Both the position numbers and the translations under genes were made by a program. From positions 105,037 through 169,036 of the forward strand of contig JBJYXV010000063.1 in assembly GCA_046260155.1 (NCBI GenBank): 64,000 nt of DNA, given 5' to 3'. Each line of letters opens with the position of its first letter. Within the stretch, counting starts at the first letter, position 1. Positions 11,730-26,626 of the stretch are shown here, piece by piece. The notes below the pieces were generated by a model. It was given only the letters and a program-made list of their open reading frames with translations. It was not told the DNA's origin and did not search any database. This DNA comes from Anaerolineales bacterium. GTDB lineage: Bacteria > Chloroflexota > Anaerolineae > Anaerolineales > UBA4823.

Positions 11730-13457
11730 TTAAAACTCACCGATTTGAGCTATTCGCAACCGTTCAATGATGATTATCCCTGCTGCAGCTACTGCCATTA
11801 GAATTGTACTCAGTGCCATTGCCTGGCCATAATTCGTCGCGCCTGGCTGTGAAATAAACCGGTAAATCATCAACGGTATGGTGGGATATTCTGGGCGAGC
11901 AATTAAAGCGGTGGCACCGAATTCTCCCAATGAGATGGTGAAGGCGAATGTTCCGGCGATGATAATTGCTCTCCCCACCAGCGGTAAATCCACAGCATGA
12001 AAAACCTGGAATGGAGATGCACCCAGAATCCCTGCAGCCTGCCGGAGGCGTGGGTTAATACTGCGCAGAGAGGGGGTGAGACTTCTCACCACGAATGGAA
12101 AGGCGACCAGGGTATGCGCTAAAGGGATCAAAATAGGCGAAGCCCGGAGGTTCAATGGTGGCAGGTTTAAAGCCACGATGAAGCCAAGACCCATTGTTAC
12201 TGCAGACGTACCCAGTGGTAGCATCAGAACAGGATCGAGCAGGCGGTTGAAGAATGAGTCGGAATAGCGAGTCAGTGCCCAGGATGCTGGCATGCCAATT
12301 GCCAAGGTGAGGATCACTGCTATTGACGCATAGACTAAGGAATTGCGAACAGCGATTAAGGGAGGGACAAAGAAAAACGATTCACGACGGTTAATCGAAA
12401 GCTGGCGGTAATTATCAAGCGTGAATCCAACAGAACGAGAAGTCCGTTCACCGCGTCCTAGGCCCGGGTTGGTGAAAGATTTTATGGAGAGCGCCAATAA
12501 TGGTGAAATTAGCAGGGAGAATAGAAAAAGAATAAGGATGCCCGCAAAAAGCCGTTGTCTCCAGGTTGTGATCCGTTTCTGAGTAAAACTACGTGCTCGC
12601 AGCTGGATCGGTTGGGACATGCTGCGGTTTAAATGAGTATAAATGACCGTCATTACCAGGGTAGAAGTCAACTGCAGGATCGAAAGCACCGCAGCCAAGG
12701 GCAAATTAAAGAAGCTGATCGTTTGGTTGTAAATTTCCACCTCTAAGTTGGCAAATTTTGGTCCACCGAGAATTAAAATCACGCCAAAAGATGTGAAATT
12801 GAAAATAAATACCAGCAAGGCTGCTGCAGTAATTGCCTGACCTAAGATTGGTAATGTGACTTTGAAGAAGGCGGTTATGGGGGTGGCACCTAAAGTTCTG
12901 GCAGCTTGGTCCAGCCGGGGGTCAATATGTGACCAGAAATCACCGACCATGCGAAGGATTATGGTCGTATTATAAAAAATGTGGGCGAGCAGTATGGCAT
13001 AGATGGTATTTGTGAATTGAATTGGGGGTGCTTCCAGGCTAAATATCTGTACTAGGGCGTTATTGACGAATCCGGTTGGACCCAACAATGCATAAAAGGC
13101 AGCTGCTACGACAACGGTTGGCAGTACAAAGGGAATGACAGTCAGCGCCTGGAGAATTGATTTGCCTCGAAAATTAAAGCGAGCAAAGAGATACGCTCCA
13201 GGTAATCCAATGGCTAAGCATAATAATGTAGAAAGAGCTGCTTGCCAGATCGTGAACCAAAATACTTGGCGAATGGATGGTGAATTAAGAGCTTCGAGAA
13301 AGGGTGTGAGAATGCCTGAACTTTGCCGTTCAAAACTAAGTTTTAGGATACTCGAAAGTGGGTAAAAGTAGAAAATGAACAGGAATGTGAGCGGCAATAA
13401 CCATAATAAACCAAGCGGAACAATCCGTCTTAAGTAACTATTCCAAATCTGAAGCAT
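11730..13457 (-). CDS. thiP: Thiamine ABC transporter permease
   Basis: Duplicated permease with two AA..LGA (EAA-like) loops; FTIWQA, SLGEFGAT; context. Confidence 0.88.
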   Translation of the reverse strand: MLQIWNSYLRRIVPLGLLWLLPLTFLFIFYFYPLSSILKLSFERQSSGILTPFLEALNSPSIRQVFWFTIWQAALSTLLCLAIGLPGAYLFARFNFRGKSILQALTVIPFVLPTVVVAAAFYALLGPTGFVNNALVQIFSLEAPPIQFTNTIYAILLAHIFYNTTIILRMVGDFWSHIDPRLDQAARTLGATPITAFFKVTLPILGQAITAAALLVFIFNFTSFGVILILGGPKFANLEVEIYNQTISFFNLPLAAVLSILQLTSTLVMTVIYTHLNRSMSQPIQLRARSFTQKRITTWRQRLFAGILILFLFSLLISPLLALSIKSFTNPGLGRGERTSRSVGFTLDNYRQLSINRRESFFFVPPLIAVRNSLVYASIAVILTLAIGMPASWALTRYSDSFFNRLLDPVLMLPLGTSAVTMGLGFIVALNLPPLNLRASPILIPLAHTLVAFPFVVRSLTPSLRSINPRLRQAAGILGASPFQVFHAVDLPLVGRAIIIAGTFAFTISLGEFGATALIARPEYPTIPLMIYRFISQPGATNYGQAMALSTILMAVAAAGIIIIERLRIAQIGEF

Positions 13458-13467
13458 GCTGATTAGG

Positions 13468-14538
13468 CTACCTTAATACCAGCTGGGTCCATTGATTGAT
13501 CCACTCTTCACGGAATTCTGCGATATCCTCGGAACTGACGATTGCCGGATGCTCTGGAATAGCCAGATGCTCAGTAAATACTTGATCAAGCACAGCCTGC
13601 TCATTAACCGGAAAAACAAACATCTGCAGTGGTATATCTTCCTGAAATTCAGGTGAAAGCATGAAATCAATCCATTGTTCCGCTAGAGCTCGATTCTGGG
13701 TACCTTTCAGGATGCCAACAAATTCAATTTGCCTGAAACAGTCACCATCACCAACGATTGCTGCGGTTGGGGGTTCTGAATCAGGCGTAGCGGAATAAAT
13801 AACCTCAAATGCAGGGCTGGAACTATAGGATACAGCCAGGGGGCGCTGCCCTCCAGAGATACTAAATTCCTGGTTATAAGCAACTTCCCAATCATTTACT
13901 ACGAGGACATGATTGTTGACGAGTCCCTGCCAGTAATTTAAATACCCTGGGTCTCCATACCGACCTATCGTGGTCAGCAGGAAAGCCAGACCTGGTGAAG
14001 AGGTAGCTGGGTTTTCCACCACCAGCATATCGCTGAACCCGGGATCAAGCAGATCATCAAGGGATTGCGGCACGGGGAGATTGTGTTTCTGGAAATAACC
14101 CCGGTCATAATTAATGCAAACATCTCCATAATCTACTGGCAGAACACGATATTTTGAATCCAGCTCAAAATTATCGTCAATTGCGGATAGCCATGGGGAG
14201 GGGTAGGATTCAAAAATATCTTTCTGCAGCGCTCTGCTGAGGAAAGTATTATCGACTCCGTACAGCACATCTGCCAAAGGATTATCTTTAGTGAGAATTG
14301 CCTTGTTAATCGTGGTCCCGGCATCCCCAGATTTGAGAAATCGAACTTCGACGCCGTGATCGGTCTGGAACTTCTCGAGCAGCTGTTCTGAAATCGAAAA
14401 TGAATCATGGGTCATTACCGTTAGGGTGCGGGCCTCGTCTCCCTGGTTAGTGTAGATGTTAGATTCTGACTCGCAGGCTGAGAGTGTCAAAGCGCTCAAG
14501 ACAATTACTATTAATTGGATTGAACTTGTTATTTTCAT
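13468..14538 (-). CDS. thiB: Thiamine ABC transporter substrate-binding lipoprotein (ThiB/TbpA)
   Basis: LSAC lipobox, THDSF, GVDNT, NPATSSPGLAF, SYSSSP, FRQIEF; start may be 14562. Confidence 0.92.
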   Translation of the reverse strand: MKITSSIQLIVIVLSALTLSACESESNIYTNQGDEARTLTVMTHDSFSISEQLLEKFQTDHGVEVRFLKSGDAGTTINKAILTKDNPLADVLYGVDNTFLSRALQKDIFESYPSPWLSAIDDNFELDSKYRVLPVDYGDVCINYDRGYFQKHNLPVPQSLDDLLDPGFSDMLVVENPATSSPGLAFLLTTIGRYGDPGYLNYWQGLVNNHVLVVNDWEVAYNQEFSISGGQRPLAVSYSSSPAFEVIYSATPDSEPPTAAIVGDGDCFRQIEFVGILKGTQNRALAEQWIDFMLSPEFQEDIPLQMFVFPVNEQAVLDQVFTEHLAIPEHPAIVSSEDIAEFREEWINQWTQLVLR

Positions 14539-14542
14539 TACC

Positions 14543-15205
14543 TTATTCCTGGCGAGTGACATTCACCATCTCCCGATGGACCAAAAGCAAGGTTCCAACT
14601 CCAATTTTTACCTGTCCAGAGTGCTCAAGCAACTCATTAGAAACACTGAGCGTACTGCCTATGCTGAGAACTGCTCCATCTAGTTTCCAGCGCAATCCCT
14701 CTGTTGAAACACCTCGTACTTTTTCGGAAAGGGGAATCAGGGAGATAATATCTCCAGGATTTCCTGTAAAAGAAATTGTGTTCCCATTTCTAAGCACATA
14801 GGCGATATCAGGTTCATCAACAACCACCAGGGATAATGGTTCCCAATCATCCCTGGCCAATAACAGTAGGTTGGACAGGCTGAGATCGAGTCGACCTCCA
14901 AGAACACCGTAGAAATGAACCTCATTTACTCTTTGCTGGTAAGCGAAGCTGAGCGCTAATTCTAAGTCGGTTTGATCTTTATCCTTTGGATAGATGATAA
15001 ATTTTACTTCCCGATCCTTCAATAAGTTGTGTAATTCATCTGAGATTGAATCCAAATCACCGATGACAACTGCTGGAGTGATATTTAACTCGTGGCAGTG
15101 ATTCGCACCCCCATCCGCTGCAATTATTAAATCACCATCCCGCAGATTGGATTGAATCCTTGAAGGATTTTTTATTATTCCATTTGCAAAAATTAATGCC
15201 CGCAA
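14543..15205 (-). CDS. thiN: Thiamine diphosphokinase
   Basis: IAADGGA, GDLDS, KDQTDLELAL, GGRLD, GL.W.L, SN; TTG start. Confidence 0.93.
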   Translation of the reverse strand: MRALIFANGIIKNPSRIQSNLRDGDLIIAADGGANHCHELNITPAVVIGDLDSISDELHNLLKDREVKFIIYPKDKDQTDLELALSFAYQQRVNEVHFYGVLGGRLDLSLSNLLLLARDDWEPLSLVVVDEPDIAYVLRNGNTISFTGNPGDIISLIPLSEKVRGVSTEGLRWKLDGAVLSIGSTLSVSNELLEHSGQVKIGVGTLLLVHREMVNVTRQE

Positions 15206-15238: not shown

Positions 15239-15252
15239 ATTGATTTCTTAAT

Positions 15253-15342
15253 GCATTCCCTCCGCCGGTATGATCCGGATCAGGTTCGTGGGTCGAGAGC
15301 TTCTCGCTCTCCTCTCAGTCTGGAATTTCAGACTCCCCAAGC
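15253..15342 (-). promoter_or_regulatory. TPP riboswitch (THI box)
   Basis: Minus strand GGGGAGTC...GACTGAGA...GACCC.CGAACCTGATCCGGATCATACCGGCGGAGGGA consensus upstream of thiamine genes. Confidence 0.96.
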
Positions 15343-15362
15343 AAAGCGTATTCGTTTATTAG

Positions 15363-15391
15363 AGTATAAGCTGGCTCAATCGCGTTGTCAA
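15363..15391 (-). promoter_or_regulatory. Sigma70 promoter of the thi operon
   Basis: TTGACA-17 nt-TATACT on the minus strand. Confidence 0.85.
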
Positions 15392-15398
15392 GAAATAC

Positions 15399-16187
15399 TC
15401 AACGCACTTTTCTTCTCCAAATTTCTTTCACCGCCATTTGACTGGGATCATCCCCGGGAGGTAGGTTAATAAAATCAGTAAGCAAACGATTAAATTTTCC
15501 TGGCTCATCAAGCATTGGATAATGACCAGATCCTTCGAATAATTGGAAATTTGAAAGTCCGGGTAATAAATTGAATTGCTCAACTCCAGGACTACCGATT
15601 GCCCGATCATTTTTTCCGTATACCCATAAGGAAGGTACCGATAATCGATTGATCAATTGGCGCCAATCAACCTCCCTGAATTCATCAAGAGATTTCGAGA
15701 TCGCACTCTGATCGGCTTTTTCCGCATCCTCCTGAGAATTTCTGAACATTGGATCATTACCAAACAACCAACTTGCAGAGTCAACCGGAGACTGGGATGC
15801 TAACCGTGAATCCGTAGTTTGTATTCCCATGGGAAAACTTACGACCATCATTCTCTCAACAATATTTGTGAAATCAGCTGCGAAATATATGCCGATGATA
15901 CTGCCCAAACCATGGCCCACAAGGGTTATCCTGTTTATACCCATTTGCCTGATAAAACCGGCGAGGAGGTCAACCTGGCGTTCTAGGGAATATCTAATAG
16001 CATTTTTATTACTTGCGCCAAAACCCCAAAAATCGATCGCATAGGCGCGAAATCTGGAGGAGGTAAATTGCATACTTGGAACCCAGTACCGCCAGGAACC
16101 AATCCAGCTATGTAAAAAAATTACTGGTTTTCCATGACCTAACACTTCATAATGGACGAGCCCATCATCATGAATTATCGCACTCAT
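15399..16187 (-). CDS. Alpha/beta hydrolase fold protein lacking the nucleophile Ser
   Basis: DFWGFG, elbow GHGLG, GxxD, GHYPM. Confidence 0.88.
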   Translation of the reverse strand: MSAIIHDDGLVHYEVLGHGKPVIFLHSWIGSWRYWVPSMQFTSSRFRAYAIDFWGFGASNKNAIRYSLERQVDLLAGFIRQMGINRITLVGHGLGSIIGIYFAADFTNIVERMMVVSFPMGIQTTDSRLASQSPVDSASWLFGNDPMFRNSQEDAEKADQSAISKSLDEFREVDWRQLINRLSVPSLWVYGKNDRAIGSPGVEQFNLLPGLSNFQLFEGSGHYPMLDEPGKFNRLLTDFINLPPGDDPSQMAVKEIWRRKVR

Positions 16188-16224
16188 AGCGTCTATTTAA
16201 TACCCGCCACCAAAATCAGCACAA

Positions 16225-16620
16225 TCATAGAGAGATTAAATTCTCTCCATCAGATTGGTTGTTGAGTATCTCAAGTAAACGGTTAAGCAGTTGATCTGGT
16301 GCAAATGGTTTCAGGATGTAGTCAACAGCTCCAGAATCGTAGCCATTCTTTATCTCAGACTCCTGTCCTTTTGCCGAGAGAAATACCACCGGGATATGTT
16401 TTGTTTCCTGGTTCGATTTTATCTTTATACAAACCTCGTATCCTGACATGCCTGGCATACGAACATCCAGCAATGCAAGATTCGGCTGTTCTCTCTTGGT
16501 CATTTCCCACGCCTCGGATCCATTCGAAGCTGAGATCACCTCGTATCCACCGTATTGAAGTGTAAATTGGATCAACTCTAAGATATCGCGTTCATCCTCA
16601 GCGATTAATATCTTGAACAT
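16225..16620 (-). CDS. Single-domain response regulator
   Basis: ILIAEDE, LLDVRMP, LSAK, KPF; GAGG before ATG 16620. Confidence 0.93.
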   Translation of the reverse strand: MFKILIAEDERDILELIQFTLQYGGYEVISASNGSEAWEMTKREQPNLALLDVRMPGMSGYEVCIKIKSNQETKHIPVVFLSAKGQESEIKNGYDSGAVDYILKPFAPDQLLNRLLEILNNQSDGENLISL

Positions 16621-18895
16621 ATTCCTCGCGCATATTGATGGCATGTTTAGAATGATCATAGATTGGTAGGGTGAATGAAAATGTACTGCCTTCACCTTCA
16701 ATACCGCTGGATTGAACCCAAACGCGACCATGGTGCATATTGATCAGCTTGGCAACGATGCTCAAGCCTAATCCAGTTCCTGCAGTAGCGATAACCATGT
16801 GGTTATCACCTCGGTAGAAGCGGTCGAATATCCTTTCCTGTTCTTTCGGGGGGATTCCGACGCCATTATCGTTAATATCAATTTGAATTTCTTCTCCAAC
16901 CCGAAAGGCAATCAGGTTCACCTCTCCATTTTCCAGAGTATAGTGGAATGCGTTACCCAGTAAATTGATCAAGATTTGGCGAATTCGCTCAGGATCACCA
17001 TTGATGGGTGGTAAATCATTAGGTATCTGGATATTGAATTGCATGGATTTATTCTCGGCAACGGTCAATCGATTAATTTCCAGCATTACATCATCAACAA
17101 TCTCCTTAACATCCAGGGAGCGTTTGACCAAGCTGACCTGGCCCGCCTCAATGCGGGATAGGTCCAGAAGATCATTCACCAGGATGGTTAACCGTTCTGT
17201 ATTTTGTTGGACGACTTCAAGGAATTTCTTTTGCTGTTCTGATAACACTCCCGCCACCCCCATCAGCAAAATATCTACATAGCCTTTAATGGAAGTCATC
17301 GGAGTACGCAATTCGTGGCTTACTGTAGCCACAAATTCGGATTTCAAACGATCGATCTCGATTAGATGGGTGATATCTCTAAAAACTGAGACAGTACCAA
17401 AGAATTCACCATTGTTGATAACAGGAGCCAGGTTGACGGATAGCACATTGCCATTCTCCAATCCAACCTGTTCGGTAAATGTTTTAAGCGGATTGATCGC
17501 ATCAGGATTCTGGGTCCAGTCATTAATCATATCCATCCAAGTTAATGCGACATCTTCGAACAACTCACTGAAGTGCTGAATAGGTCTTCCGACAAGTTCA
17601 GCTCTTTTCATTCCAAGCATGTTCTCTGCTGAATGGTTGAAGAGAGTGATCTCTCCATCTTGATCCGTGACCAGCACACCATCAGCAATCGCTTCGAGGA
17701 TAGACCGCGATCGACTCGTTTCTACCCTTTGATCCCTGAGTAATGCACCTAATTCCTCCTTTTGGTTGAGGGTAAGATGAAAAAGCTCTGCGTTCTTGAT
17801 TGCCACTGCCATCTGATTTGCCGCAGCTTGAATTAAATCGAGTTGCGCTTCGGAAAATTTCCCGGTCTCTGGATAATAGAGCAGCAAAACCCCGAGCAAT
17901 TGGTCACCCATGATGATGGGAGCACCTACAGCACTGCGGTGGTGATACCAATTGTTCGGGAGTTGGATCCAGCGATCATCCTCCAGGACATCCTTGATCA
18001 ATACTGACTTTCTATTTGCGATAATCCATCCGACCAGTCCCTGGTTAATATTTAACGCAGACTGCATACCACCGGGAGGCAGTGGATTCGAGTACCCGAC
18101 AGTTGCTAAATGGCGTAATTTTCTATTGTCCGATTGAAGCACCATGCAGGTAGCGTGACTCGCACCAATAACTTCATTAAGGACTTCTAAAGTCCGTTGA
18201 AGGATTTTTTCAAAATCCAGGCTTGAAGATAATTCTGTCATGATGCGCAATAATGTCTCAGTGCGCTGGTGTTCCTGACTCAGCTGTTTTGTCTTGAGCT
18301 GGTATTTTTTATCAAGTTCATTCGTCAAGCTTGAAGTCGGAATTCTCCTCGAATCCAAATTAATATCAAGTTGATCCTCTACTCCAGTAATGGTTGGAGA
18401 ATAGACGGTACCACGAATGAGGCTGGCTGCTGGTTCTTTGGAATAGAATTTGTTATTGGTTTGAGAGTTATTCCCCTTATCTTGGAATGTCACTAACATG
18501 TGGGGGTATGAATTATGAGGAACTTTATATGATTTTCCTTCGATTAATCTATCCCCAACATTCAACCGTGCTTTTCCTTCCTGCGAACATAAGGCAAAAA
18601 ATGACTCTTTTGGAGTCAGCAGGGATGCGAACAATTCTAAGCTGGTTTTATCACCATTCAAATTGAAGAATTCCTTGATGCTAGGACTTGAATACGCAAT
18701 CTTCCCACCCTGCGTTACCAGGAAATATGCTTCATAATGGTTTGGTAAGTGGAGGGGAAGCTGAATACTTCGCAAGTGGATTGAATTTTGGCTGGTTTTC
18801 CGGAAATAATCAATAAATTGGGAAACCAGGAAATACCCAAGCATCCCCGAAAAGAGCAGTATTGCACTTAAACTCAAGCCATTTAACTCGATCAT
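16598..18895 (-). CDS. Sensor histidine kinase (TM-GAF-PAS-HisKA-HATPase)
   Basis: SHELRTP, NLLGNA, DNGVG, GTGLGL; GAF and PAS segments. Confidence 0.94.
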   Translation of the reverse strand: MIELNGLSLSAILLFSGMLGYFLVSQFIDYFRKTSQNSIHLRSIQLPLHLPNHYEAYFLVTQGGKIAYSSPSIKEFFNLNGDKTSLELFASLLTPKESFFALCSQEGKARLNVGDRLIEGKSYKVPHNSYPHMLVTFQDKGNNSQTNNKFYSKEPAASLIRGTVYSPTITGVEDQLDINLDSRRIPTSSLTNELDKKYQLKTKQLSQEHQRTETLLRIMTELSSSLDFEKILQRTLEVLNEVIGASHATCMVLQSDNRKLRHLATVGYSNPLPPGGMQSALNINQGLVGWIIANRKSVLIKDVLEDDRWIQLPNNWYHHRSAVGAPIIMGDQLLGVLLLYYPETGKFSEAQLDLIQAAANQMAVAIKNAELFHLTLNQKEELGALLRDQRVETSRSRSILEAIADGVLVTDQDGEITLFNHSAENMLGMKRAELVGRPIQHFSELFEDVALTWMDMINDWTQNPDAINPLKTFTEQVGLENGNVLSVNLAPVINNGEFFGTVSVFRDITHLIEIDRLKSEFVATVSHELRTPMTSIKGYVDILLMGVAGVLSEQQKKFLEVVQQNTERLTILVNDLLDLSRIEAGQVSLVKRSLDVKEIVDDVMLEINRLTVAENKSMQFNIQIPNDLPPINGDPERIRQILINLLGNAFHYTLENGEVNLIAFRVGEEIQIDINDNGVGIPPKEQERIFDRFYRGDNHMVIATAGTGLGLSIVAKLINMHHGRVWVQSSGIEGEGSTFSFTLPIYDHSKHAINMREEYVQDINR

Positions 18896-18898
18896 TTG

Positions 18899-19789
18899 CT
18901 AGGTAGTATCACGCCTGCGCGCATCGGCTGCCATCTCGGTAATCTCCCGGATATCGGTAAATTCATTGTTCGAAGAAGTGACAACACCAATTTTCATGGA
19001 GATGATGGGGCTTTGACTCGAAGCACCTCCATTACCTGAATATTCGATGTAACCCTTCTGTCGATCCAGGTAGTTATAATGAGTCAATATTTCTTCGGAA
19101 AAACGAGCAAGTAAACTCTTTTTAATCAAAGGTGCACATTCTTCGGTCGTGAAGATCACAAAATGATCATTCCCGGTATGTCCCACAAAATCATTGATTG
19201 TGCCATATTCATCGACAATCTCCCCGATCAACATTGCAGTAAAGCGCAATATATTATCACTGGCGACAAATCCATAGGCTTCCTTGAAGGCGTCAAAATG
19301 ATCAAGGCGGATATCAAAGAACGACCAGCCATCCGTATGAATGGTTTGCCGCAGGTGATCTTCGATTAATCGACCGGAAGGCAGGTTTGTGTGCGGTTCT
19401 GTAAGACTTTCGCGCTCCGAGCGGGCAATGGCGTTATAGACTTTGAGCCTCAGCTCTTCAATATCAAAAGGTTTTGTGATGTAATCATCCGCTCCCAGTT
19501 CTAGCCCCTGCAATTTATCGCTGCGTTCATCTTTTTGGGTTAGGAAGATCACCGGTATATGGCTGGTGCGGGTATGGGTGCGCAATGTCCTGCAAACTTC
19601 ATAGCCGTCAATATCCGGGAGCATGATATCCAAAATAATGATGTGCGGTAATCTTTGGCGGGTTTTTTCCAATGCCTCCGAGCCGCGCACGGCAATATCA
19701 ACTTCATAATGGAGGCCGCCGAAGTAAATCTCCAGCATGTTGGCAATATCGATATCATCTTCTACAATCAGTAGTCGTGATTTAGCCAT
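18899..19789 (-). CDS. Response regulator with degenerate GGDEF-like output domain
   Basis: REC (VEDD, LDIMLP, KPF) plus TNLPS...YGF...GHTGNDHF. Confidence 0.88.
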   Translation of the reverse strand: MAKSRLLIVEDDIDIANMLEIYFGGLHYEVDIAVRGSEALEKTRQRLPHIIILDIMLPDIDGYEVCRTLRTHTRTSHIPVIFLTQKDERSDKLQGLELGADDYITKPFDIEELRLKVYNAIARSERESLTEPHTNLPSGRLIEDHLRQTIHTDGWSFFDIRLDHFDAFKEAYGFVASDNILRFTAMLIGEIVDEYGTINDFVGHTGNDHFVIFTTEECAPLIKKSLLARFSEEILTHYNYLDRQKGYIEYSGNGGASSQSPIISMKIGVVTSSNNEFTDIREITEMAADARRRDTT

Positions 19790-19837
19790 CTCCAACTCCC
19801 TTGCGAACTAGTTAATCATCAGCTGTTAAACGGGGTG

Positions 19838-21157
19838 CTAATCCCCCGGGTTTTGAAGGACCTCTTGGGATAAATATTTCCACGAGTGTCTTTCTGTCAT
19901 TGCATGGCGGGGATACAAACGAGGATGAAGGTTGCCAAACGTGAGTTGATGGTGATCGCTTTCTTCATATGTAATGTCCTTCTCAATCACCCGCCTATCC
20001 TTGGAAGCAAATAAAATCACATCAGACTCTATTGTCCTACCGGGAAAAACAATCAGTCCCGAGCCAAGTCTGCAATTGTGACCTACGCAACTGCCAAGGA
20101 TTGGGCGATTTGCATCTTCGAGTTCATTATTACCATTACGGGCACGAATCGGAATCGGTACCAAATTAAAATCTGTGAATGTTGAACCTGCACCAATGAA
20201 GGATTTGCGACCGACAACAACCATCTGGAGACAGGTATTTTGAGCAACCATGCTGTTTTCCATGAAAGTGCTCATAAAAAGGGAGGCGCGAAAAGGTAAG
20301 AATGATCCATCTCCCACAACTGATAACATCAATTGACAGTCTTGCGAGATGTTTACGTTGTCACCAATGATACAGTTCTCGATCACTGCGCCAGCATTAA
20401 TAGTTACATTGTCGCCGATAGTTGTTGGTCCGTGGATAACAGCCTGTGGGTCGATCGTGCAATTCCTTCCAATCTTCACCAGCTCTGAACATTGAAGAAC
20501 TTGTTTTCCCTCAATTAGTGCTTTTGACAAGATACGAAGCTTATAAAAAGGATCCCTTTTTAACTGTTCTTCAAATCTCAACCCACGCTTGAACAAACCA
20601 AAGACGATATCGGCAATAAAAACATGAACCCAAGAATCGATCGCCAGCATGCTGCGAATTGGAATTTGAAATACTAAATCGGACTGGTTGAAAGCGATAT
20701 AGGGTGGGACATGGTAATTGCCCACCTCATGAGCCAGCATATCGATAATTACAGGTTCCACATCTTCGGCATACCCGTCGGGAAAATACCATAGGTCTGC
20801 CAGGAATGAATCTTCATGAGGAGTATATGAAGTTGATAGGGGTAAGGCGTGTTCTCTGAAAGCAGGATCTTTTATGGAAAAACCGGCTCTACACGGTGCT
20901 TGAGCTTTCTGAGCCTGTGCAAGGAAAGTACTGATAAAGGCAGAATCAAAATAAAGGTTATCCTGGTAGACAATAGCTGGACCTGTAAAATCTGGAATGG
21001 GATACCCCGCAGGAAGTTCAATTTCATGATCGGTGTAGGGAGACAAGATGTCCCGTTGAATTAACCAGAGCGGTTGATTTTGAATACGCAGGTCTCGCGC
21101 ACGTTCATTGAATGGGGTTATATATCGTAAATCTTTTATAATTATTTTTAACATCAC
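19838..21157 (-). CDS. Left-handed beta-helix (hexapeptide repeat) protein with degenerate nucleotidyltransferase-like N-terminus
   Basis: IGRNCTID..AVIHGPTTIGDNVTI...IENCIIGDNV repeats. Confidence 0.8.
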   Translation of the reverse strand: MMLKIIIKDLRYITPFNERARDLRIQNQPLWLIQRDILSPYTDHEIELPAGYPIPDFTGPAIVYQDNLYFDSAFISTFLAQAQKAQAPCRAGFSIKDPAFREHALPLSTSYTPHEDSFLADLWYFPDGYAEDVEPVIIDMLAHEVGNYHVPPYIAFNQSDLVFQIPIRSMLAIDSWVHVFIADIVFGLFKRGLRFEEQLKRDPFYKLRILSKALIEGKQVLQCSELVKIGRNCTIDPQAVIHGPTTIGDNVTINAGAVIENCIIGDNVNISQDCQLMLSVVGDGSFLPFRASLFMSTFMENSMVAQNTCLQMVVVGRKSFIGAGSTFTDFNLVPIPIRARNGNNELEDANRPILGSCVGHNCRLGSGLIVFPGRTIESDVILFASKDRRVIEKDITYEESDHHQLTFGNLHPRLYPRHAMTERHSWKYLSQEVLQNPGD

Positions 21158-21198
21158 AGTCTACCAGTAATTTTGATTTGGTCCTCCAGGTCGCAGAT

Positions 21199-21984
21199 TC
21201 AAACCTGATCCAGGTAAGATTTCAGGGTATTTTTAAATTGGATTGGTTCATCCAGCATTATGAAATGACCAGCACGATGAAACCTTTCAATCTGTACTCG
21301 CTGCAAATAATTATCCAAAACACTCCATTGGTTTGGATTCACGATCACATCCCGGTCTCCATACATTCCCAATACAGGCTGGTAGATGGGCGGAAGTAGA
21401 GGAGTCAGGTCAGTTTGGCGCAGTGATGATATGCTCATCAGGAACGATTCCAAGGTAATCTGATTCAGGTCTTGGTGGATCATTTCAGGCCATCTGCTTT
21501 CGCGTGTGATTACTGGAGCAGCTAAACGAATGCCAAGTTTCAGTGCGTCCATCATTTTGTAAACGAGTCTGGCGATGGAACGAATGCTGGCTAACTTTAA
21601 TAAAATGGATAAAGATGATCCCTCTACTGGTGAACCTATCACGACAACTTTACTTACTTTCTCTGGATGGTTAATAGCAACAGAAAGACTCACAGTGCCA
21701 CCCATTGAGTGACCGACCAGAGGAGCATTTCTGATCCCCAATTTCTCCATGAAATCATTTACCAACATAACGAAATCCGATACCGAGAATGATTCCCGAC
21801 GTTTGTCAGATTCACCAAATCCCCAGAAATCGATCGCATATGTACGGTATGAGCTACCAAGAAAATCCATGGTCTCTTGCCAGAGACCCCATGACTCCAA
21901 CCACCCGTGTAGTAAGATTACCGGACGCCCATGTCCATAAACTTCATAATGAACGCTACCCTGGTCAGTGATCAGCGATGACAT
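21199..21984 (-). CDS. Alpha/beta hydrolase with intact triad
   Basis: LHGW, GHSMGG, GDRD, AGHF. Confidence 0.92.
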   Translation of the reverse strand: MSSLITDQGSVHYEVYGHGRPVILLHGWLESWGLWQETMDFLGSSYRTYAIDFWGFGESDKRRESFSVSDFVMLVNDFMEKLGIRNAPLVGHSMGGTVSLSVAINHPEKVSKVVVIGSPVEGSSLSILLKLASIRSIARLVYKMMDALKLGIRLAAPVITRESRWPEMIHQDLNQITLESFLMSISSLRQTDLTPLLPPIYQPVLGMYGDRDVIVNPNQWSVLDNYLQRVQIERFHRAGHFIMLDEPIQFKNTLKSYLDQV

Positions 21985-21998
21985 GAAAACACATCTTC

Positions 21999-22550
21999 CT
22001 AATTAACAGTCTGATAATCTAGTTCCTCTAATTCGGCCAATATGCTGTAAAGGAGCTCAAGGAGAATGTGTTTGACGGACTCTTTATCCGTGGCGACACA
22101 CTCCAGGAGCTTAATATTTGATCCCAATCGCAAAGCGATGCGCATATCGTCAATTTCCCACGCATCCTCACAATCTTGCTTGTTTGCAGCGACCACGTAT
22201 GGGGTTGGTGAATAAGCGCGGAAAGTTTCCAGAATCTTTCTCGCCTCACGAAACGTCTCTGGTCGATTGCTGTCAATGATCACGACAAACCCCAGCATGC
22301 CTTCTGATAAGATCTCCCACATAAAATCAAATCTTTTTTGGCCAGGCGTTCCAAATAGATAAAGGACCATTTCATCGTCCACTGTGATGCGTCCAAAATC
22401 CATGGCAACCGTGGTGGTTTCTTTTATCCGCTCGATTTCTGAAGAAATCTTGCGTTCAGTAGATACAATATCTATCTCGCTGACAGATTTAATGAATTCA
22501 GTTTTGCCAGCATTGAACGGACCTGTAACGACCATTTTTAATGTTTGCAT
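21999..22550 (-). CDS. MglA-family (CvnD-like) small GTPase
   Basis: GPFNAGKT, TTVAMDFG, LYLFGTPGQKRF.FMW, NKQD. Confidence 0.92.
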   Translation of the reverse strand: MQTLKMVVTGPFNAGKTEFIKSVSEIDIVSTERKISSEIERIKETTTVAMDFGRITVDDEMVLYLFGTPGQKRFDFMWEILSEGMLGFVVIIDSNRPETFREARKILETFRAYSPTPYVVAANKQDCEDAWEIDDMRIALRLGSNIKLLECVATDKESVKHILLELLYSILAELEELDYQTVN

Positions 22551-22567
22551 GTCCAACAATTATCCAT

Positions 22568-23395
22568 CTACAAGGAACGAATGCGATCAATGATGCGGAA
22601 GAGTAGAGATTTTCCTTCTTCCTTATCACCATTAACAAGTTGATCTGCGAGCTGTACTGGTTTTGGAGAACCTTCTGGGGTTTCCAGACGTACCATTTCG
22701 ATGATTCCTGCCTGTACAAGGCTGTAAATCACCTGTCGAATTTGGGCATCGCTCATACCGGTCACTCTGGCAATTTGACCAATTGTATTCTTGGGATCGA
22801 CATAGGGAATTACCTGCCATTCCTCAGAGCTCAATTTCAGATTTGAAACATCGGCACTTGGACGATCGACAAACTTTACCCCGATTTCGAGGCTAGGTAT
22901 TTCGTCTTCAAGCAGTTCCAGTTCTCTAATCTGCCTTGAACCTTCAAGGATTAAATTTTCCAAACCCACCCGGACTGTGATCTTATCATCTGGAGGGAAA
23001 ATGTCTGTTTCGAAATGGAAAAAACCTTCCATCCAGGTAAATAATCGATTAACCACCTCTGAAAAATGAGCTTGTAAGCTCAGGAGAATATCTTGTTGGC
23101 TGAAGTAATTAGCATTTATTAATAGCAACCCTAATTCTTTATCGCTCATTCCATTCACATTCGTTTTGATATTGCGATATTGAGAGGGGGTTAAGAGGTG
23201 AGATTTGTGAAGGATGCCTGCAAGGCTGTTATCTTCTTGACCAGAATTGGCATAAGCCAATTTCCCATTAGTGAAAAACACCTCGACTGCCTCATTCGAC
23301 CTCTCTACAATCAGGGTTCCTGATTTTTGAGCGATGGTTATTAAATTTAGCAATTGGGCGAGTGTAAAATCGTGAAGATTTCCTTTGATTGCCAT
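22568..23395 (-). CDS. DUF4388 (PATAN-like) protein with C-terminal winged-helix-like segment
   Basis: MAIKGNL.DF.L..LL.LI...KSGTL, F..GKL.YA, LFTW.EG.F.F, LILEG.R. Confidence 0.85.
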   Translation of the reverse strand: MAIKGNLHDFTLAQLLNLITIAQKSGTLIVERSNEAVEVFFTNGKLAYANSGQEDNSLAGILHKSHLLTPSQYRNIKTNVNGMSDKELGLLLINANYFSQQDILLSLQAHFSEVVNRLFTWMEGFFHFETDIFPPDDKITVRVGLENLILEGSRQIRELELLEDEIPSLEIGVKFVDRPSADVSNLKLSSEEWQVIPYVDPKNTIGQIARVTGMSDAQIRQVIYSLVQAGIIEMVRLETPEGSPKPVQLADQLVNGDKEEGKSLLFRIIDRIRSL

Positions 23396-23488
23396 AGTAA
23401 CCTCTTGAGATTGCTAAGCGATTAGCTGAATTAATGTTGGGAAGTAAAGAACCAAAGAAGTTGTTTCCCACGTCAGTATTTGATTATC

Positions 23489-23517
23489 TTGACATGCTTT
23501 CGCCTTGTGTATATAAT
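23489..23517 (+). promoter_or_regulatory. Perfect consensus sigma70 promoter of tRNA-Asn
   Basis: TTGACA-17 nt-TATAAT. Confidence 0.92.
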
Positions 23518-23530
23518 CCATACGCTATTT

Positions 23531-23604
23531 TCCTCGGTAGCTCAATTCGGCAGAGCGGGCGGCTGTTAACCGCTAGGTTCCAGGTTCGAGTCCTGGCCGA
23601 GGAG
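23531..23604 (+). tRNA. tRNA-Asn (GTT)
   Basis: TCCTCGG/CCGAGGA acceptor stem, anticodon loop CTGTTAA, T-loop TTCGAGT; CCA not encoded. Confidence 0.97.
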
Positions 23605-23690
23605 CTGACATCTCTTTCTACCTGATAACTCCCTGCGAAAAACCATTGCGATTTTTCCAAGAAAATAAATTTTTATTGCTTGATTGTATC

Positions 23691-23723
23691 AAAAAAAGGC
23701 GTCTCAACTATTGGAGACGCCTT
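23691..23723 (-). terminator. Intrinsic terminator after the FmdB-like gene
   Basis: AAGGCGTCTC-loop-GAGACGCCTT plus T-run on the minus strand. Confidence 0.8.
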
Positions 23724-23762
23724 ACGATTGGTATACAATTCTGATAGGGTGATCAGTGATGA

Positions 23763-24071
23763 TTACTCAGTTTTCTTCTCAGAAATTGGTTTTGATTCTT
23801 TCTTTTCAGTCGCCTCACTACCCGAATCTGCTTTCGATTCACCAGACCCCTCTTCCTTGGTGCTCCCATTTTTTCGAGATACTCCAGAAGGTGAACGGTG
23901 ATCTGTTGCATAAAATCCAGAACCCTTAAAAACAATACCAACAGGTGTGTAAATTTTCCTCAGAGCTTTCTTTGAACATTCTGGACACACTGTAAGTGGT
24001 TTCTCTGAGAATTTCTGGCGACGGTCAAACCTGACACCGCAATTATCACACTGGTAAGTATAGATTGGCAT
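23763..24071 (-). CDS. FmdB-family zinc-ribbon protein
   Basis: MPIY.Y.CxxC...CPEC...FKGSGFY.TD; S/K/E-rich tail. Confidence 0.92.
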   Translation of the reverse strand: MPIYTYQCDNCGVRFDRRQKFSEKPLTVCPECSKKALRKIYTPVGIVFKGSGFYATDHRSPSGVSRKNGSTKEEGSGESKADSGSEATEKKESKPISEKKTE

Positions 24072-24286: not shown

Positions 24287-26626
24287 TCATTTTTGATCAA
24301 CAGAAATGGGTAAGGAAATGGCAAAGTTACTGCCTCCCGCGGGTCTTTGTTCCACCCAAATTTTTCCTTTGTGGGCTTCCACTGCTAATCGACAATAAGT
24401 TAAACCTAATCCTGAGCCACGTTTCCGACTTGGGCGGTCGGGAATTTGGAAAAAGCGGTCGAAAATTGAATGAATATACTTATCTGGAATCCCCGGTCCG
24501 CGATCGAGTACATGAATCTCAACAAATTCTTGATTTTGGAGTTCAATCGTTACCTTGATTTCTCCATCTTGGGGGCTGAACTTCAAAGCGTTATCGATGA
24601 GATTATTTAGAACGCGCTGGATCTTGTTTTTATCCAGCCTGACTGGCGGAATTTTAATATTGGAATCAAAAATTATTCTTATTCCATAGTCGATTGCCAG
24701 CGGTTTCAATTCTGCGATGGATTCGGACAATAATTCCACCAGATCTATGCTCGATAAATTCAAATCGATCCTGCCGGATTCCATGCGGTTAATTTCGAGA
24801 ATCGATTCAACCATGGCTAGCATCCGTTTCGAACTGCGTTGGGCGATCTGGATCGATGGTTCCAGGATGCCAGCTGGATCTCCACTCGCGTGAGCGTCAT
24901 AAATCACATCTAATGCACTGATCGTTGAACTCAGGGGTGAACGCAGATCGTGAACGAGCGTCTCGCTGATCAGATTTTGAGTTTGCTTCAGCTGGTATTC
25001 ATCGGTGATATCCTTCAGGTTGATGATCAAACCACTCAGGGTATTTGAACCGTCTTCGACCTGGATAATGGAACGTTCTATGAAAAGTTCGGGTGAGCGG
25101 TTAACCATCTGATACGTAATTTTCTCAGTTGTCAGGTTATGTTTTGTCATCAAGGCATCCAGAATTTTTCCGGTGCGCGCATTGGAAAAACCAATTAAGT
25201 CAGCAACCTGGGCCGGTAAATCTGTGAGTTTGTGCCCGATGAACTCGCTTTGTGGCAGACCAGTCAGAACAGAGACAGCTTCATTGATCAGGGTAATTTT
25301 TCCTTCTGCATCAATCAGCATCAGTCCATCATGGACCGAATTCAAGATTGTGGTCAATCGATCTCGCCCGATGGTGATATCCGATGAAAGTAGCGCGTTA
25401 TGCAATGCGATTTCTATCGCAACACTGGTTTGTCCCGAAAGGATACTGAGCAGGTTCATGTCATCCTGGGTGAACTCAGTATTTCTACTCATTGAGAATA
25501 ATGCAAGGCAACCAATCGTATGTTTGGAGGTAATTAAGGGTACGCCAATCCAGGCATATGGGTCATCTTCACCTGTGGGTAATCCTATCTGGGAAAGGTG
25601 CTGGCTCGCGTTATTCGCAAGTAAAATGGGTTTCGCTTCCAGGATGACCCTGTCGGTCAAGCGGTCAGTGAGCGGTCGCCTCTGCCATGTTTGCCTGATG
25701 CCGTGCTTTACCGCTAACGGGTACCAAATCTGCTGATCTACCGGATCAAGCAATGCGACGTAGAAATTGTCAACATCCAGCAAACCAGTCAATTGGACCT
25801 GGATTGAGCTCAGCAATCTTTCTAAATCAATATCGGAGCTGAGCACCTTGCTGATCGCTTCCAATGCGGATAATTCATCCAACCTGCGTTCGAGATTTTT
25901 CCTGGGTGCATCAAGATAGAATATCAATAATCCCAGCGCAAAGTTTGCCACACCGAGAATAATGATTGTCCCATCAGCGACAATTGGGTAGAGCAGCAAA
26001 GATATAAATCCAAAAAACATGGGCAGAATTTCAATCGAAATGAGCGCTAATATGTCCCAATTTTCTCTGGTAAACGGATTTGATCCAAATTTTTCCATGC
26101 TGGTGAAATACAGCAAACCATGCACAGTTCCATAAACGAGTCCAGCACCGAGAATTTCCAACCACCACAAACTTTTATTGAAGTCGAGTGCTGAGATGCC
26201 CTGATTTATGCCGAACAACAGGAAGGTGATTACGATTGTGAACGAGGTGATTCCAAAATTGAAGATTGTTCCCCACAATCTTGAAGCATTCTTCGCGGGG
26301 ATCGCCAGGAAACGGGATGGCATGAACAGGGAAAAGGTTGTTGCTGCAAAAACACCGACAAGATTTGCAGTTACCGCAAGACCAGTTCCATAAAGAAGAC
26401 CTGCCGAGAATAAGGCAATATGGATTAGAGAAAAATAATTATTAAATAGTCTCAGCGGAAGTATTTCAATCACGCCCACGATGAGGATCATAAGAACCAA
26501 TGGCATAATCTGATCCTGGTTTAATGGGGAGATTACCAATCCCAGGATCAAAGCTGCAATACTAATTATGAGAACAATGATTCGAAAAGTTCTCTGTTTG
26601 GGATCCTCTATTTTGGGCATCTGCAC
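24287..26626 (-). CDS. Multi-TM GAF-PAS sensor histidine kinase
   Basis: About 7 TM helices; VHDLRSP, NLIDNALKF, DRGPG, GSGLGL. Confidence 0.93.
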   Translation of the reverse strand: MQMPKIEDPKQRTFRIIVLIISIAALILGLVISPLNQDQIMPLVLMILIVGVIEILPLRLFNNYFSLIHIALFSAGLLYGTGLAVTANLVGVFAATTFSLFMPSRFLAIPAKNASRLWGTIFNFGITSFTIVITFLLFGINQGISALDFNKSLWWLEILGAGLVYGTVHGLLYFTSMEKFGSNPFTRENWDILALISIEILPMFFGFISLLLYPIVADGTIIILGVANFALGLLIFYLDAPRKNLERRLDELSALEAISKVLSSDIDLERLLSSIQVQLTGLLDVDNFYVALLDPVDQQIWYPLAVKHGIRQTWQRRPLTDRLTDRVILEAKPILLANNASQHLSQIGLPTGEDDPYAWIGVPLITSKHTIGCLALFSMSRNTEFTQDDMNLLSILSGQTSVAIEIALHNALLSSDITIGRDRLTTILNSVHDGLMLIDAEGKITLINEAVSVLTGLPQSEFIGHKLTDLPAQVADLIGFSNARTGKILDALMTKHNLTTEKITYQMVNRSPELFIERSIIQVEDGSNTLSGLIINLKDITDEYQLKQTQNLISETLVHDLRSPLSSTISALDVIYDAHASGDPAGILEPSIQIAQRSSKRMLAMVESILEINRMESGRIDLNLSSIDLVELLSESIAELKPLAIDYGIRIIFDSNIKIPPVRLDKNKIQRVLNNLIDNALKFSPQDGEIKVTIELQNQEFVEIHVLDRGPGIPDKYIHSIFDRFFQIPDRPSRKRGSGLGLTYCRLAVEAHKGKIWVEQRPAGGSNFAISLPISVDQK

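Follow-up and report, generated by a model that had tools for sequence, protein, structure and literature searches.

Within a 64,000-nucleotide stretch of the genome of an Anaerolineales bacterium (NCBI GenBank assembly GCA_046260155.1, contig JBJYXV010000063.1, positions 105,037 to 169,036 of the forward strand; hereafter the window, whose first letter is position 1), eight adjacent genes are built around a small GTPase of the MglA family. This operon is a streamlined local copy of a GTPase system that has spread through parts of the Chloroflexota, and it is an undescribed variant of bacterial G-protein signalling. The explanation that accounts best for our observations, and which as a whole we consider probable on balance, has three elements: (i) a core formed by the GTPase and a PATAN protein encoded next to it; (ii) a Roadblock protein, encoded elsewhere in the genome and acting in trans; and (iii) six further genes that are inherited together with the core. 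What the operon does we can only infer. An initial annotation of the window, made from its letters alone, had already described the eight genes as one signalling unit around an MglA-like GTPase, and had added that this GTPase has no MglB partner; the first of these statements is now borne out by conserved gene order and by the distribution of the genes among genomes, while the second has to be revised.

The operon and its gene order

The minus strand holds eight consecutive open reading frames between 23395 and 15399, arranged head to tail where the initial annotation had placed them, and a Pfam scan confirms every domain named at that time. In transcript order they encode: (i) a PATAN (DUF4388) protein of 275 amino acids (22568..23395; DUF4388, E 3.5e-25); (ii) an MglA-family small GTPase of 186 amino acids with Group 5 features (21999..22559; ATP_bind_1 9.4e-19, Ras 4.4e-11); (iii) an alpha/beta hydrolase, H1, with an intact Ser-Asp-His triad (21199..21984; Abhydrolase_1 1.9e-30); (iv) a 439-amino-acid protein joining a nucleotidyltransferase-like N-domain to a left-handed beta-helix (LbH, 19838..21157; Hexapep 1.6e-13, residues 224-315 only); (v) a response regulator in which a receiver (REC) domain is followed by a degenerate GGDEF domain (REC-GGDEF*, 18899..19795; Response_reg 7.3e-28, GGDEF 9.1e-07, partial); (vi) a sensor histidine kinase of 765 amino acids with the Pfam architecture GAF-PAS-HisKA-HATPase and a hydrophobic N-terminal segment (16598..18895); (vii) a single-domain REC response regulator (16225..16620; Response_reg 6e-30); and (viii) a second alpha/beta hydrolase, H2, a paralogue of H1 in which the nucleophile Ser is replaced by Gly (15399..16187; Abhydrolase_1 3.7e-19). 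The claim that the genes are separated by less than 50 nucleotides (nt) or overlap also holds: the spacers are 8 nt between the PATAN and GTPase genes, 14 nt to H1, 41 nt to LbH, 42 nt to REC-GGDEF*, 3 nt to the kinase and 37 nt between REC and H2, giving a range of 3-42 nt with one overlap. That overlap, between the kinase and REC genes, measures 134 nt if the longest REC reading frame (to 16731) is used and 23 nt if REC starts at ATG 16620, the start that we adopt because the relatives of this protein are 124-128 amino acids long.

A synteny survey across the phylum had been proposed as a check, and we ran it with LbH as the anchor. Among 8000 candidates scored, 4775 LbH relatives were found at E<=1e-5, the best 120 of these 4775 being 67-93% identical to the window's protein (62-93% for the LbH orthologues overall). 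It took in 80 loci, all from species-representative genomes whose labels are Anaerolineae, Anaerolineales or Chloroflexota; Bellilinea, Ornatilinea, Levilinea, Leptolinea and Thermanaerothrix are among them. In the Anaerolineae the order PATAN-GTPase-H1-LbH-REC-GGDEF*-kinase-REC-H2 recurs: at the assessable loci the PATAN gene is present in 60/64, the GTPase gene in 64/68, H1 in 68/72, REC-GGDEF* (missing, for instance, from L044) in 65/68 and the kinase in 47/51, and counts anchored on the kinase instead of LbH place REC after the kinase in 49/49 and H2 after REC in 22/22. Since dozens of species share this order at only 47-90% protein identity (47-79% for the PATAN proteins, 77-90% for the GTPase), a chance arrangement is excluded, and by these comparisons the eight genes are a real operon whose order is kept across the Anaerolineae. 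The PATAN and GTPase genes are also neighbours at 16/18 loci sampled from families of the phylum outside this group. Two RNA libraries, from two studies, have contigs on the operon. Three of these contigs extend at least 31 letters to either side of a gene junction (PATAN/GTPase, GTPase/H1 and kinase/REC), which lends weak support to co-transcription; many stretches of the operon have no RNA-library contig and are uninformative on expression.

In most relatives the operon is larger. A V4R gene stands between H1 and LbH in 47/80 loci, its product matching PF02830 with 30.5 bits, just below the cut-off of 31, and in 36/80 loci a reductase-like gene stands between LbH and REC-GGDEF* (for example L041 11297-12385), with matches to the PigE N-domain (2.6e-64) and to long-chain acyl-ACP (acyl carrier protein) reductase (1.9e-37) that both fall below the respective cut-offs. 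The kinase of most relatives is 2300-2500 amino acids long with nine GAF stretches (L060 12384-19322, 2312 amino acids and 9 GAF; also L041 13227-20759). L060 is Bellilinea caldifistulae, which like Ornatilinea apprima (L022) is a cultured bacterium with this operon. The window belongs with L005, L006, L011 and L012 to a short-form lineage, which has a 765-amino-acid kinase with one GAF domain and has lost the V4R and reductase-like genes from the operon; a tblastn search of the window's genome did not find the reductase-like gene.

The GTPase and its PATAN neighbour

The GTPase carries the motifs GPFNAGKT, TT in G2, GTPGQ and NKQD, and its nearest solved structure is Thermus MglA (3t12, E 5.2e-07), which agrees with the earlier reading of the protein as MglA/CvnD-like. 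Among its orthologues GTPGQ is kept in 84/85 and NKQD in 83/85, the sequence TTVAMDF is conserved, and T49-T50 are invariant in the alignment, with a Thr replacing the intrinsic Arg finger beside the Thr of G2. According to PMC4316618, GTPGQ and a Thr in place of the Arg finger characterise Groups 2-5, a canonical [NT]KxD G4 motif is found only in Groups 1, 4 and 5, and Group 5 occurs in Chloroflexi, 'occasionally' beside PATAN genes. Motifs and taxon thus place this GTPase in Group 5 of the MglA family; it has GTPGQ and Thr instead of the TVPGQ and Arg finger of Group 1.

The PATAN protein matches PF14332 with 88.8 bits against a cut-off of 25 and has no REC domain, whereas PatA-type proteins are PATAN domains fused to a C-terminal REC. 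Its AlphaFold model (mean predicted local distance difference test score, pLDDT, 82.2) comprises, in this order, a PATAN domain with a helical insertion (approximately residues 1-165), a winged helix (approximately 185-235), a disordered linker and a basic C-terminal helix (261-274), whose Arg/Leu/Ile pattern is kept in 31/31 aligned orthologues, including those that are only 29-35% identical overall. When the whole model is searched with Foldseek, subunits of GATOR1 and SEA lead the matches (E 8.2e-04, with a template-modelling score, TM, of only 0.22). VIA-align likewise returns GATOR1 and SEA subunits first for the winged helix (residues 165-238; Z 9.1, over 71 residues, and 8.8), followed by many MarR-type domains at Z 6-7; these alignments cover essentially the winged helix alone and do not bear on the fold of residues 1-165. 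GATOR1 and SEA complexes are regulators of Rag GTPases.

Co-prediction of the GTPase with the DUF4388 protein, another of the checks proposed at the outset, yielded a predicted complex. With paired alignments made for this analysis, GTP and Mg included and three controls, the interface score ipSAE was 0.80 (0.80, 0.81 and 0.79 in separate runs) against 0.17 for the best control; the runs share at least 86% of their contacts, and the pLDDT of the partner is at least 81. The mark used for such co-folds is reached by 116/157 solved complexes and by 2/215 mismatched pairs, counts that are only a rough guide here because we used our own alignments and because GTP and Mg were part of the prediction. 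The predicted interface pairs PATAN residues 245-275 with GTPase residues 58-66 (beta2-beta3) and 159-181 (alpha5). In Myxococcus, the acidic C-terminal helix of MglB is reported to bind a pocket of MglA formed by a Lys-rich alpha5, beta2 and the beta2-beta3 loop, and to promote nucleotide exchange (PMC6785124). The interface predicted here corresponds to that pocket, with a basic PATAN helix facing an acidic loop (D61 D62 E63) and an acidic alpha5. By this prediction, the C-terminal helix of the PATAN protein docks into the GTPase pocket formed by alpha5 and beta2-beta3.

The winged helix and the kinase also suggest another reading, in which the system resembles the conservons and its output is transcription, exerted through the PATAN winged helix. 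The modelled domain (165-238, Z 9.1-6) and sub-threshold Pfam matches of MarR type speak for it, as does the presence of a kinase gene in the operon, as in conservons, for which the published model makes CvnB the GTPase-activating protein (GAP) and CvnC the likely guanine nucleotide exchange factor (GEF; PMC13343842). Nevertheless, we regard this reading as unlikely, if the most serious of the competitors: (i) DUF742, the domain of CvnC, was not detected by Pfam at E<=10 in six PATAN C-terminal parts, which gave only sub-threshold winged-helix families (those of MarR type among them), and a search of the genome with PF05331 (DUF742) gave five sub-threshold matches, none of them at the operon; (ii) the G4 motif is the canonical NKQD, unlike that of Group 2, and gene order and partners differ; (iii) cyanobacterial PATAN domains are reported to bind pilus motor proteins and the membrane, with DNA binding argued against (10.1101/2021.06.11.447907); and (iv) the best winged-helix matches are the protein-interaction domains of GATOR1/SEA subunits. 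A likeness of the PATAN tail to CvnC was rejected on the first of these grounds.

Co-inherited partners and a possible mechanism

The statement that the GTPase lacks an MglB partner is correct for the 8 kb of the operon and for the window, neither of which contains a Roadblock gene, but it does not extend to the genome. The search for Roadblock proteins recommended earlier found exactly one gene in this genome, which is 93% complete and has one such GTPase and one DUF4388 gene. It lies on the same contig, about 46 kb upstream of the GTPase gene and outside the window (PF03259, 70.5 bits); closely behind it come a V4R gene (PF02830, 44.8 bits against a cut-off of 31) and a gene for a GT2 glycosyltransferase of the polyprenyl-phosphate type. 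In 6/80 loci (L015, L018, L045, L051, L061, L067) Roadblock and V4R genes are fused to the operon, directly upstream of PATAN and on the same strand, with Roadblock 85-89% and V4R 73-76% identical to the window's genome and accompanied by a second REC-GGDEF* and GT2; by hand count, the sequence upstream is long enough for such an arrangement to be visible in about 59 of the 80. In 8 sampled Anaerolineae genomes a Roadblock-V4R-(REC-GGDEF*)-GT2 operon stands elsewhere, its Roadblock protein 83-92% identical. Beyond these, in a locus of another family (L089) PATAN and GTPase are followed on the same strand by two Roadblock genes, V4R, LbH, a hydrolase and a further Roadblock gene, L131 likewise places LbH and a hydrolase between Roadblock and V4R genes, and L090 reads PATAN-GTPase-Roadblock. 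In L089, the G015 version of this cluster, genes for a REC-GAF-HisKA_3 kinase and a NarL-type regulator, a different two-component system in the same neighbourhood, precede PATAN, and a guanylate kinase gene (L089 4612-5253, minus strand) comes after the last Roadblock gene. Some relatives from family f2 (L103, L105, L108, L112, L121) carry Roadblock twice, the additional paralogue standing alone and sharing 71-74% identity with the first.

Distribution among genomes points in the same direction. In one sample of 401 Chloroflexota genomes (the unpublished G038 included), with thresholds of E<=1e-10 for the GTPase and E<=1e-30 for LbH orthologues, the GTPase is present in 73 genomes and Roadblock in 142, all 73 GTPase-positive genomes among them; in the window's own class Roadblock occurs in 30/30 GTPase-positive and in 0/16 GTPase-negative genomes. 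LbH orthologues were found in 66 genomes, 66/66 of which are GTPase-positive, and in 0/328 GTPase-negative ones. This coupling holds within families (in f3, 1/9 genomes has both genes; in f8, 1/2 has both), and it persists when megabases separate the genes, as in G231, G223 and G263, in which LbH stands in a [V4R]-LbH-REC-GGDEF*-kinase(-hydrolase) block.

The enzyme-like proteins of the operon show a mixture of conservation and decay. H1 has GHSMGG together with Asp and His, GHSMGG being kept in 77/78 orthologues and the Asp and His motifs also kept. H2, 32% identical to H1, has GHGLGS, and in 32/34 orthologues GHG[LYF]G with Gly at the nucleophile position and the His kept; it is a likely pseudo-enzyme because Gly replaces the nucleophile Ser, and the two proteins would form a conserved enzyme/pseudo-enzyme pair. 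We found no characterised hydrolase close to either, the PDB matches being generic esterases, meta-cleavage product (MCP) hydrolases and epoxide hydrolases; receptors of the RsbQ/D14/KAI2 type were considered as nearest relatives and rejected, since they are absent among the 60 best PDB sequence matches. The LbH model has a pLDDT of 64.7 overall, approximately 90 in the N-domain and poor values beyond residue 330, and all its NCBIfam matches are far below cut-offs. Nucleotidyltransferases usually carry a glycine-rich nucleoside triphosphate (NTP) loop; none was seen in the N-domain of LbH, which looks degenerate. The GGDEF motif of REC-GGDEF* reads GNDHF (7/76 orthologues; GGDNF in 50/76), departs from the GG[DE]EF of active diguanylate cyclases and is non-canonical in all 76, and the match covers profile positions 5-91 of 161, while the receiver Asp motif is kept in 76/76. 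Of the three partners that looked degenerate in the initial annotation, the GGDEF domain and H2 are so by these counts, and LbH may be. Both receivers of the operon have the acidic pocket, Asp and Lys, and the kinase has an intact H-box (HELRTP).

From these elements a mechanism can be proposed. Sequence and prediction together suggest a core of two proteins, a PATAN/winged-helix protein and its partner, the Group 5 MglA-family GTPase. The former would probably tether the GTPase, tune its nucleotide exchange, or both, a role that follows from the prediction of its tail in the pocket where the MglB helix acts allosterically on MglA. Roadblock, 46 kb away, would most likely act in trans as the GAP-type partner. 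The GAF/PAS kinase would phosphorylate both receiver proteins, and REC-GGDEF* is the likely adaptor between phosphorelay and GTPase cycle, as is RomR in Myxococcus. H1 and LbH, joined in relatives by the reductase-like enzyme, might make or modify a small ligand, probably hydrophobic or acyl-linked, for which H2 and V4R are candidate sensors; V4R/Bet3 folds are reported to bind palmitate or phenols (PMC10933270). As for the output, our guess is that the system probably positions a machine of the envelope or surface, or sets its activity, and does not act on transcription; in the genome we found only two secretion ATPases of Tad-like size.

Several points weigh against the explanation that we favour. 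(i) The system is separable: some Anaerolineae loci have no PATAN-GTPase-H1 upstream of LbH (L049, L053, L055, L069), others lack the two-component part, with neither REC-GGDEF* nor kinase (L077, L081), or the kinase after REC-GGDEF* (L004, L025), and in several other families PATAN-GTPase stands alone (L084-L088, L094, L095). (ii) Seven GTPase-positive genomes have no LbH orthologue, and 69 Roadblock-positive genomes are without this GTPase at E<=1e-10, so that Roadblock is not exclusive to it. (iii) The genomes counted are kin and not independent samples. (iv) The docking prediction may owe something to MglA-MglB structures memorised by the model, and the PATAN tail could instead be a membrane-targeting amphipathic helix. 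(v) RNA contigs cannot show one transcript, and RNA libraries can contain DNA.

The first of these points, together with the [V4R]-LbH-REC-GGDEF*-kinase(-hydrolase) blocks that stand apart from PATAN-GTPase in other families (L122-L128), is what would be expected if a PATAN-GTPase switch, a metabolic pair of hydrolase and LbH, and a two-component system with a pseudo-hydrolase merely lay side by side and were functionally separate. Such a loose juxtaposition is in our view improbable, because LbH is confined to GTPase-positive genomes, even when genomes of the same family (f3, f8) are compared, because the order has been kept although the PATAN proteins are only 47-79% identical, and because L089 and L131 place LbH and a hydrolase between Roadblock and V4R genes. 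Less probable still is an extension of the original proposal, a GTPase that works without any Roadblock and for which PATAN, LbH or the hydrolases take the place of MglB as GAP or GEF: the GTPase is indeed an 'orphan' as PMC4316618 defines it, because its Roadblock gene is 46 kb away and not within four genes (as it is in L089, L090 and the 6/80 fused loci), orphan MglA proteins such as SofG and the MglA of Bdellovibrio are functional according to the same source, and in family f2 the Roadblock genes are megabases from the GTPase gene, but Roadblock accompanies the GTPase in 73/73 genomes and is missing from all 16 GTPase-negative genomes of the window's class, it directly follows the GTPase gene in L089 and L090 and is fused to the operon in those six loci, and the window's own Roadblock protein keeps the Asp-Gly pair reported for MglB proteins coupled to Groups 2-5 (PMC4316618).

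Genomic setting and relation to known systems

The eight genes are framed by unrelated units, namely a tRNA gene and a terminated Zn-ribbon unit upstream and a riboswitch operon downstream. On the upstream side, a weak promoter-like site on the minus strand (23483..23511; 9/12 consensus positions, a consensus match only) precedes the PATAN gene; the region holds 24 promoter-like sites against 21.4 in shuffles, and thus no excess. Divergent from the PATAN gene is tRNA-Asn(GTT) (23531-23605, plus strand), with its own promoter TTGACA-17-TATAAT, a perfect sigma-70 consensus, at 23489-23517; in one DNA run, depth peaks sharply here and loose ends are numerous, a pattern that a conserved tRNA would be expected to give. 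Farther upstream are genes for a Zn-ribbon protein (23763-24071, minus strand), separated from the operon by a strong hairpin terminator (23723-23696), and for a second GAF-PAS histidine kinase (24287-26626, minus strand), 25% identical to the operon kinase over 454 residues. The same two genes stand upstream of the operon in 8 relatives (L005, L007, L011, L020, L032, L033, L042, L072). Just downstream of H2 lies a thiamine pyrophosphate (TPP) riboswitch (15239-15349, minus strand; Rfam RF00059, 65.1 bits against a gathering score of 54.3), which has a near-consensus promoter (15391-15363) and heads genes for a thiamine pyrophosphokinase (14543-15205) and for the solute-binding protein (13468-14562) and permease (11730-13457) of an ATP-binding cassette (ABC) transporter. 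A hairpin at 15228-15211 was considered as the terminator of the operon and rejected, since it is the riboswitch's terminator and part of this downstream unit. DNA nearly identical to 15300-23800 is present in 18 DNA runs from 13 studies (labels: rhizosphere, marine sediment and marsh metagenomes), whose contigs share 41-99% of the sampled words; the assembly may derive from one of these runs.

Almost nothing is known of the cell biology of Anaerolineae, filamentous bacteria that abound in sediments, soils and digesters. To our knowledge, Myxococcus-type polarity and the actinobacterial conservons are the only two settings in which bacterial Ras-like GTPases are understood, and Group 5 MglA proteins, though catalogued, have never been studied. 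Being single-copy, strongly conserved and co-inherited with LbH and a phosphorelay, the system described here offers a compact and testable model of how two-component, small-molecule and G-protein signalling may be wired together. Part of it has been published before: the pairing of PATAN with Group 5 MglA and the PATAN/MglB neighbourhood are reported in PMC4316618, which cites Makarova 2006. We found no account of the extended operon, the bacterial V4R-Roadblock pair or the LbH coupling in a literature search that largely left aside subscription journals; on a link between V4R, Roadblock and a GTPase in bacteria, Podar 2008 (PMC2253512) does not contain the words GTPase, MglB, Roadblock or operon, and PMC3149612 and PMC3791482 give no such link. 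What is new, then, is the predicted docking of the PATAN tail in the GTPase pocket, which gives the PATAN family a concrete molecular hypothesis, the co-occurrence counts of 73/73 and 66/66, and the negative test for DUF742. Koonin and Aravind (2000) are reported to have discussed Roadblock-GTPase operons.

In spite of similarities with several known systems, the operon differs from each of them. (i) With the Group 5 GTPases of PMC4316618 it shares GTPGQ, Thr for the Arg finger, a canonical NKxD, its occurrence in Chloroflexi and the PATAN neighbour; that paper describes the PATAN link as 'occasional' and the neighbourhoods as variable, whereas here the pair is constant and joined to hydrolases, LbH, V4R proteins and a phosphorelay. 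(ii) The MglA/MglB/RomR-RomX module of Myxococcus xanthus and Thermus thermophilus also combines a Ras-like GTPase with a Roadblock partner and has a receiver-domain protein, RomR, in its regulation, and a helix in the alpha5/beta2-beta3 pocket that regulates the GTPase there (PMC6785124) is predicted here. True MglA, however, is a Group 1 protein (TVPGQ, Arg finger), our Roadblock is encoded elsewhere, and the Myxococcus helix is MglB's own, acidic and facing a Lys-rich alpha5, whereas the helix predicted here belongs to PATAN, is rich in Arg and lies opposite an acidic loop and helix. (iii) Conservons (CvnA-D, Mfp; PMC13343842) likewise have a histidine kinase, a Roadblock protein, a GTPGQ GTPase and accessory GAF or enzyme proteins, but in our operon, from another phylum, there is neither a DUF742 protein nor the cvnA-B-C-D order, G4 is canonical and the partners of the kinase are ordinary receivers. 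(iv) In PatA-type PATAN-REC proteins (10.1101/2021.06.11.447907), too, a system linked to a phosphorelay uses PATAN for output or interaction; here PATAN is unfused, combined with a winged helix and a predicted GTPase-docking tail, and the receivers are separate genes. (v) The LbH protein resembles, in its two-domain nucleotidyltransferase-like and LbH architecture, its Foldseek matches ST0452 (5z0a, E 4.2e-05), GMPPA/GMPPB (7d74), RmlA and GlmU, at only 8-12% identity and a TM of approximately 0.3. GMPPA is a catalytically silent regulatory paralogue.

A further parallel is with TRAPP, whose core is a longin dimer flanked by Bet3-family subunits and serves as GEF for Rab1 (PMC10933270). In both systems proteins of the Roadblock/longin fold and of the V4R/Bet3 fold are tied to a Ras-like GTPase, and here the two are encoded next to each other; the difference is that the V4R proteins of our system have a Cys4 site and look more like ligand sensors, and a functional homology is speculative. 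It is conceivable, if rather unlikely, that Roadblock and V4R form a TRAPP-like complex for the GTPase, a longin/Roadblock-type dimer flanked by Bet3-type subunits, to which PATAN would supply the pocket helix in trans, and that a lipid-like ligand made by the operon enzymes would gate the switch. In any case, the pairing of Roadblock with V4R bears on the origin of eukaryotic GTPase regulators, with their longin/Roadblock and Bet3 folds, and if the TRAPP-like arrangement were true, the TRAPP-Rab logic of eukaryotes would have its counterpart, perhaps even its forerunner, in a bacterial system that is linked to a histidine-kinase phosphorelay.

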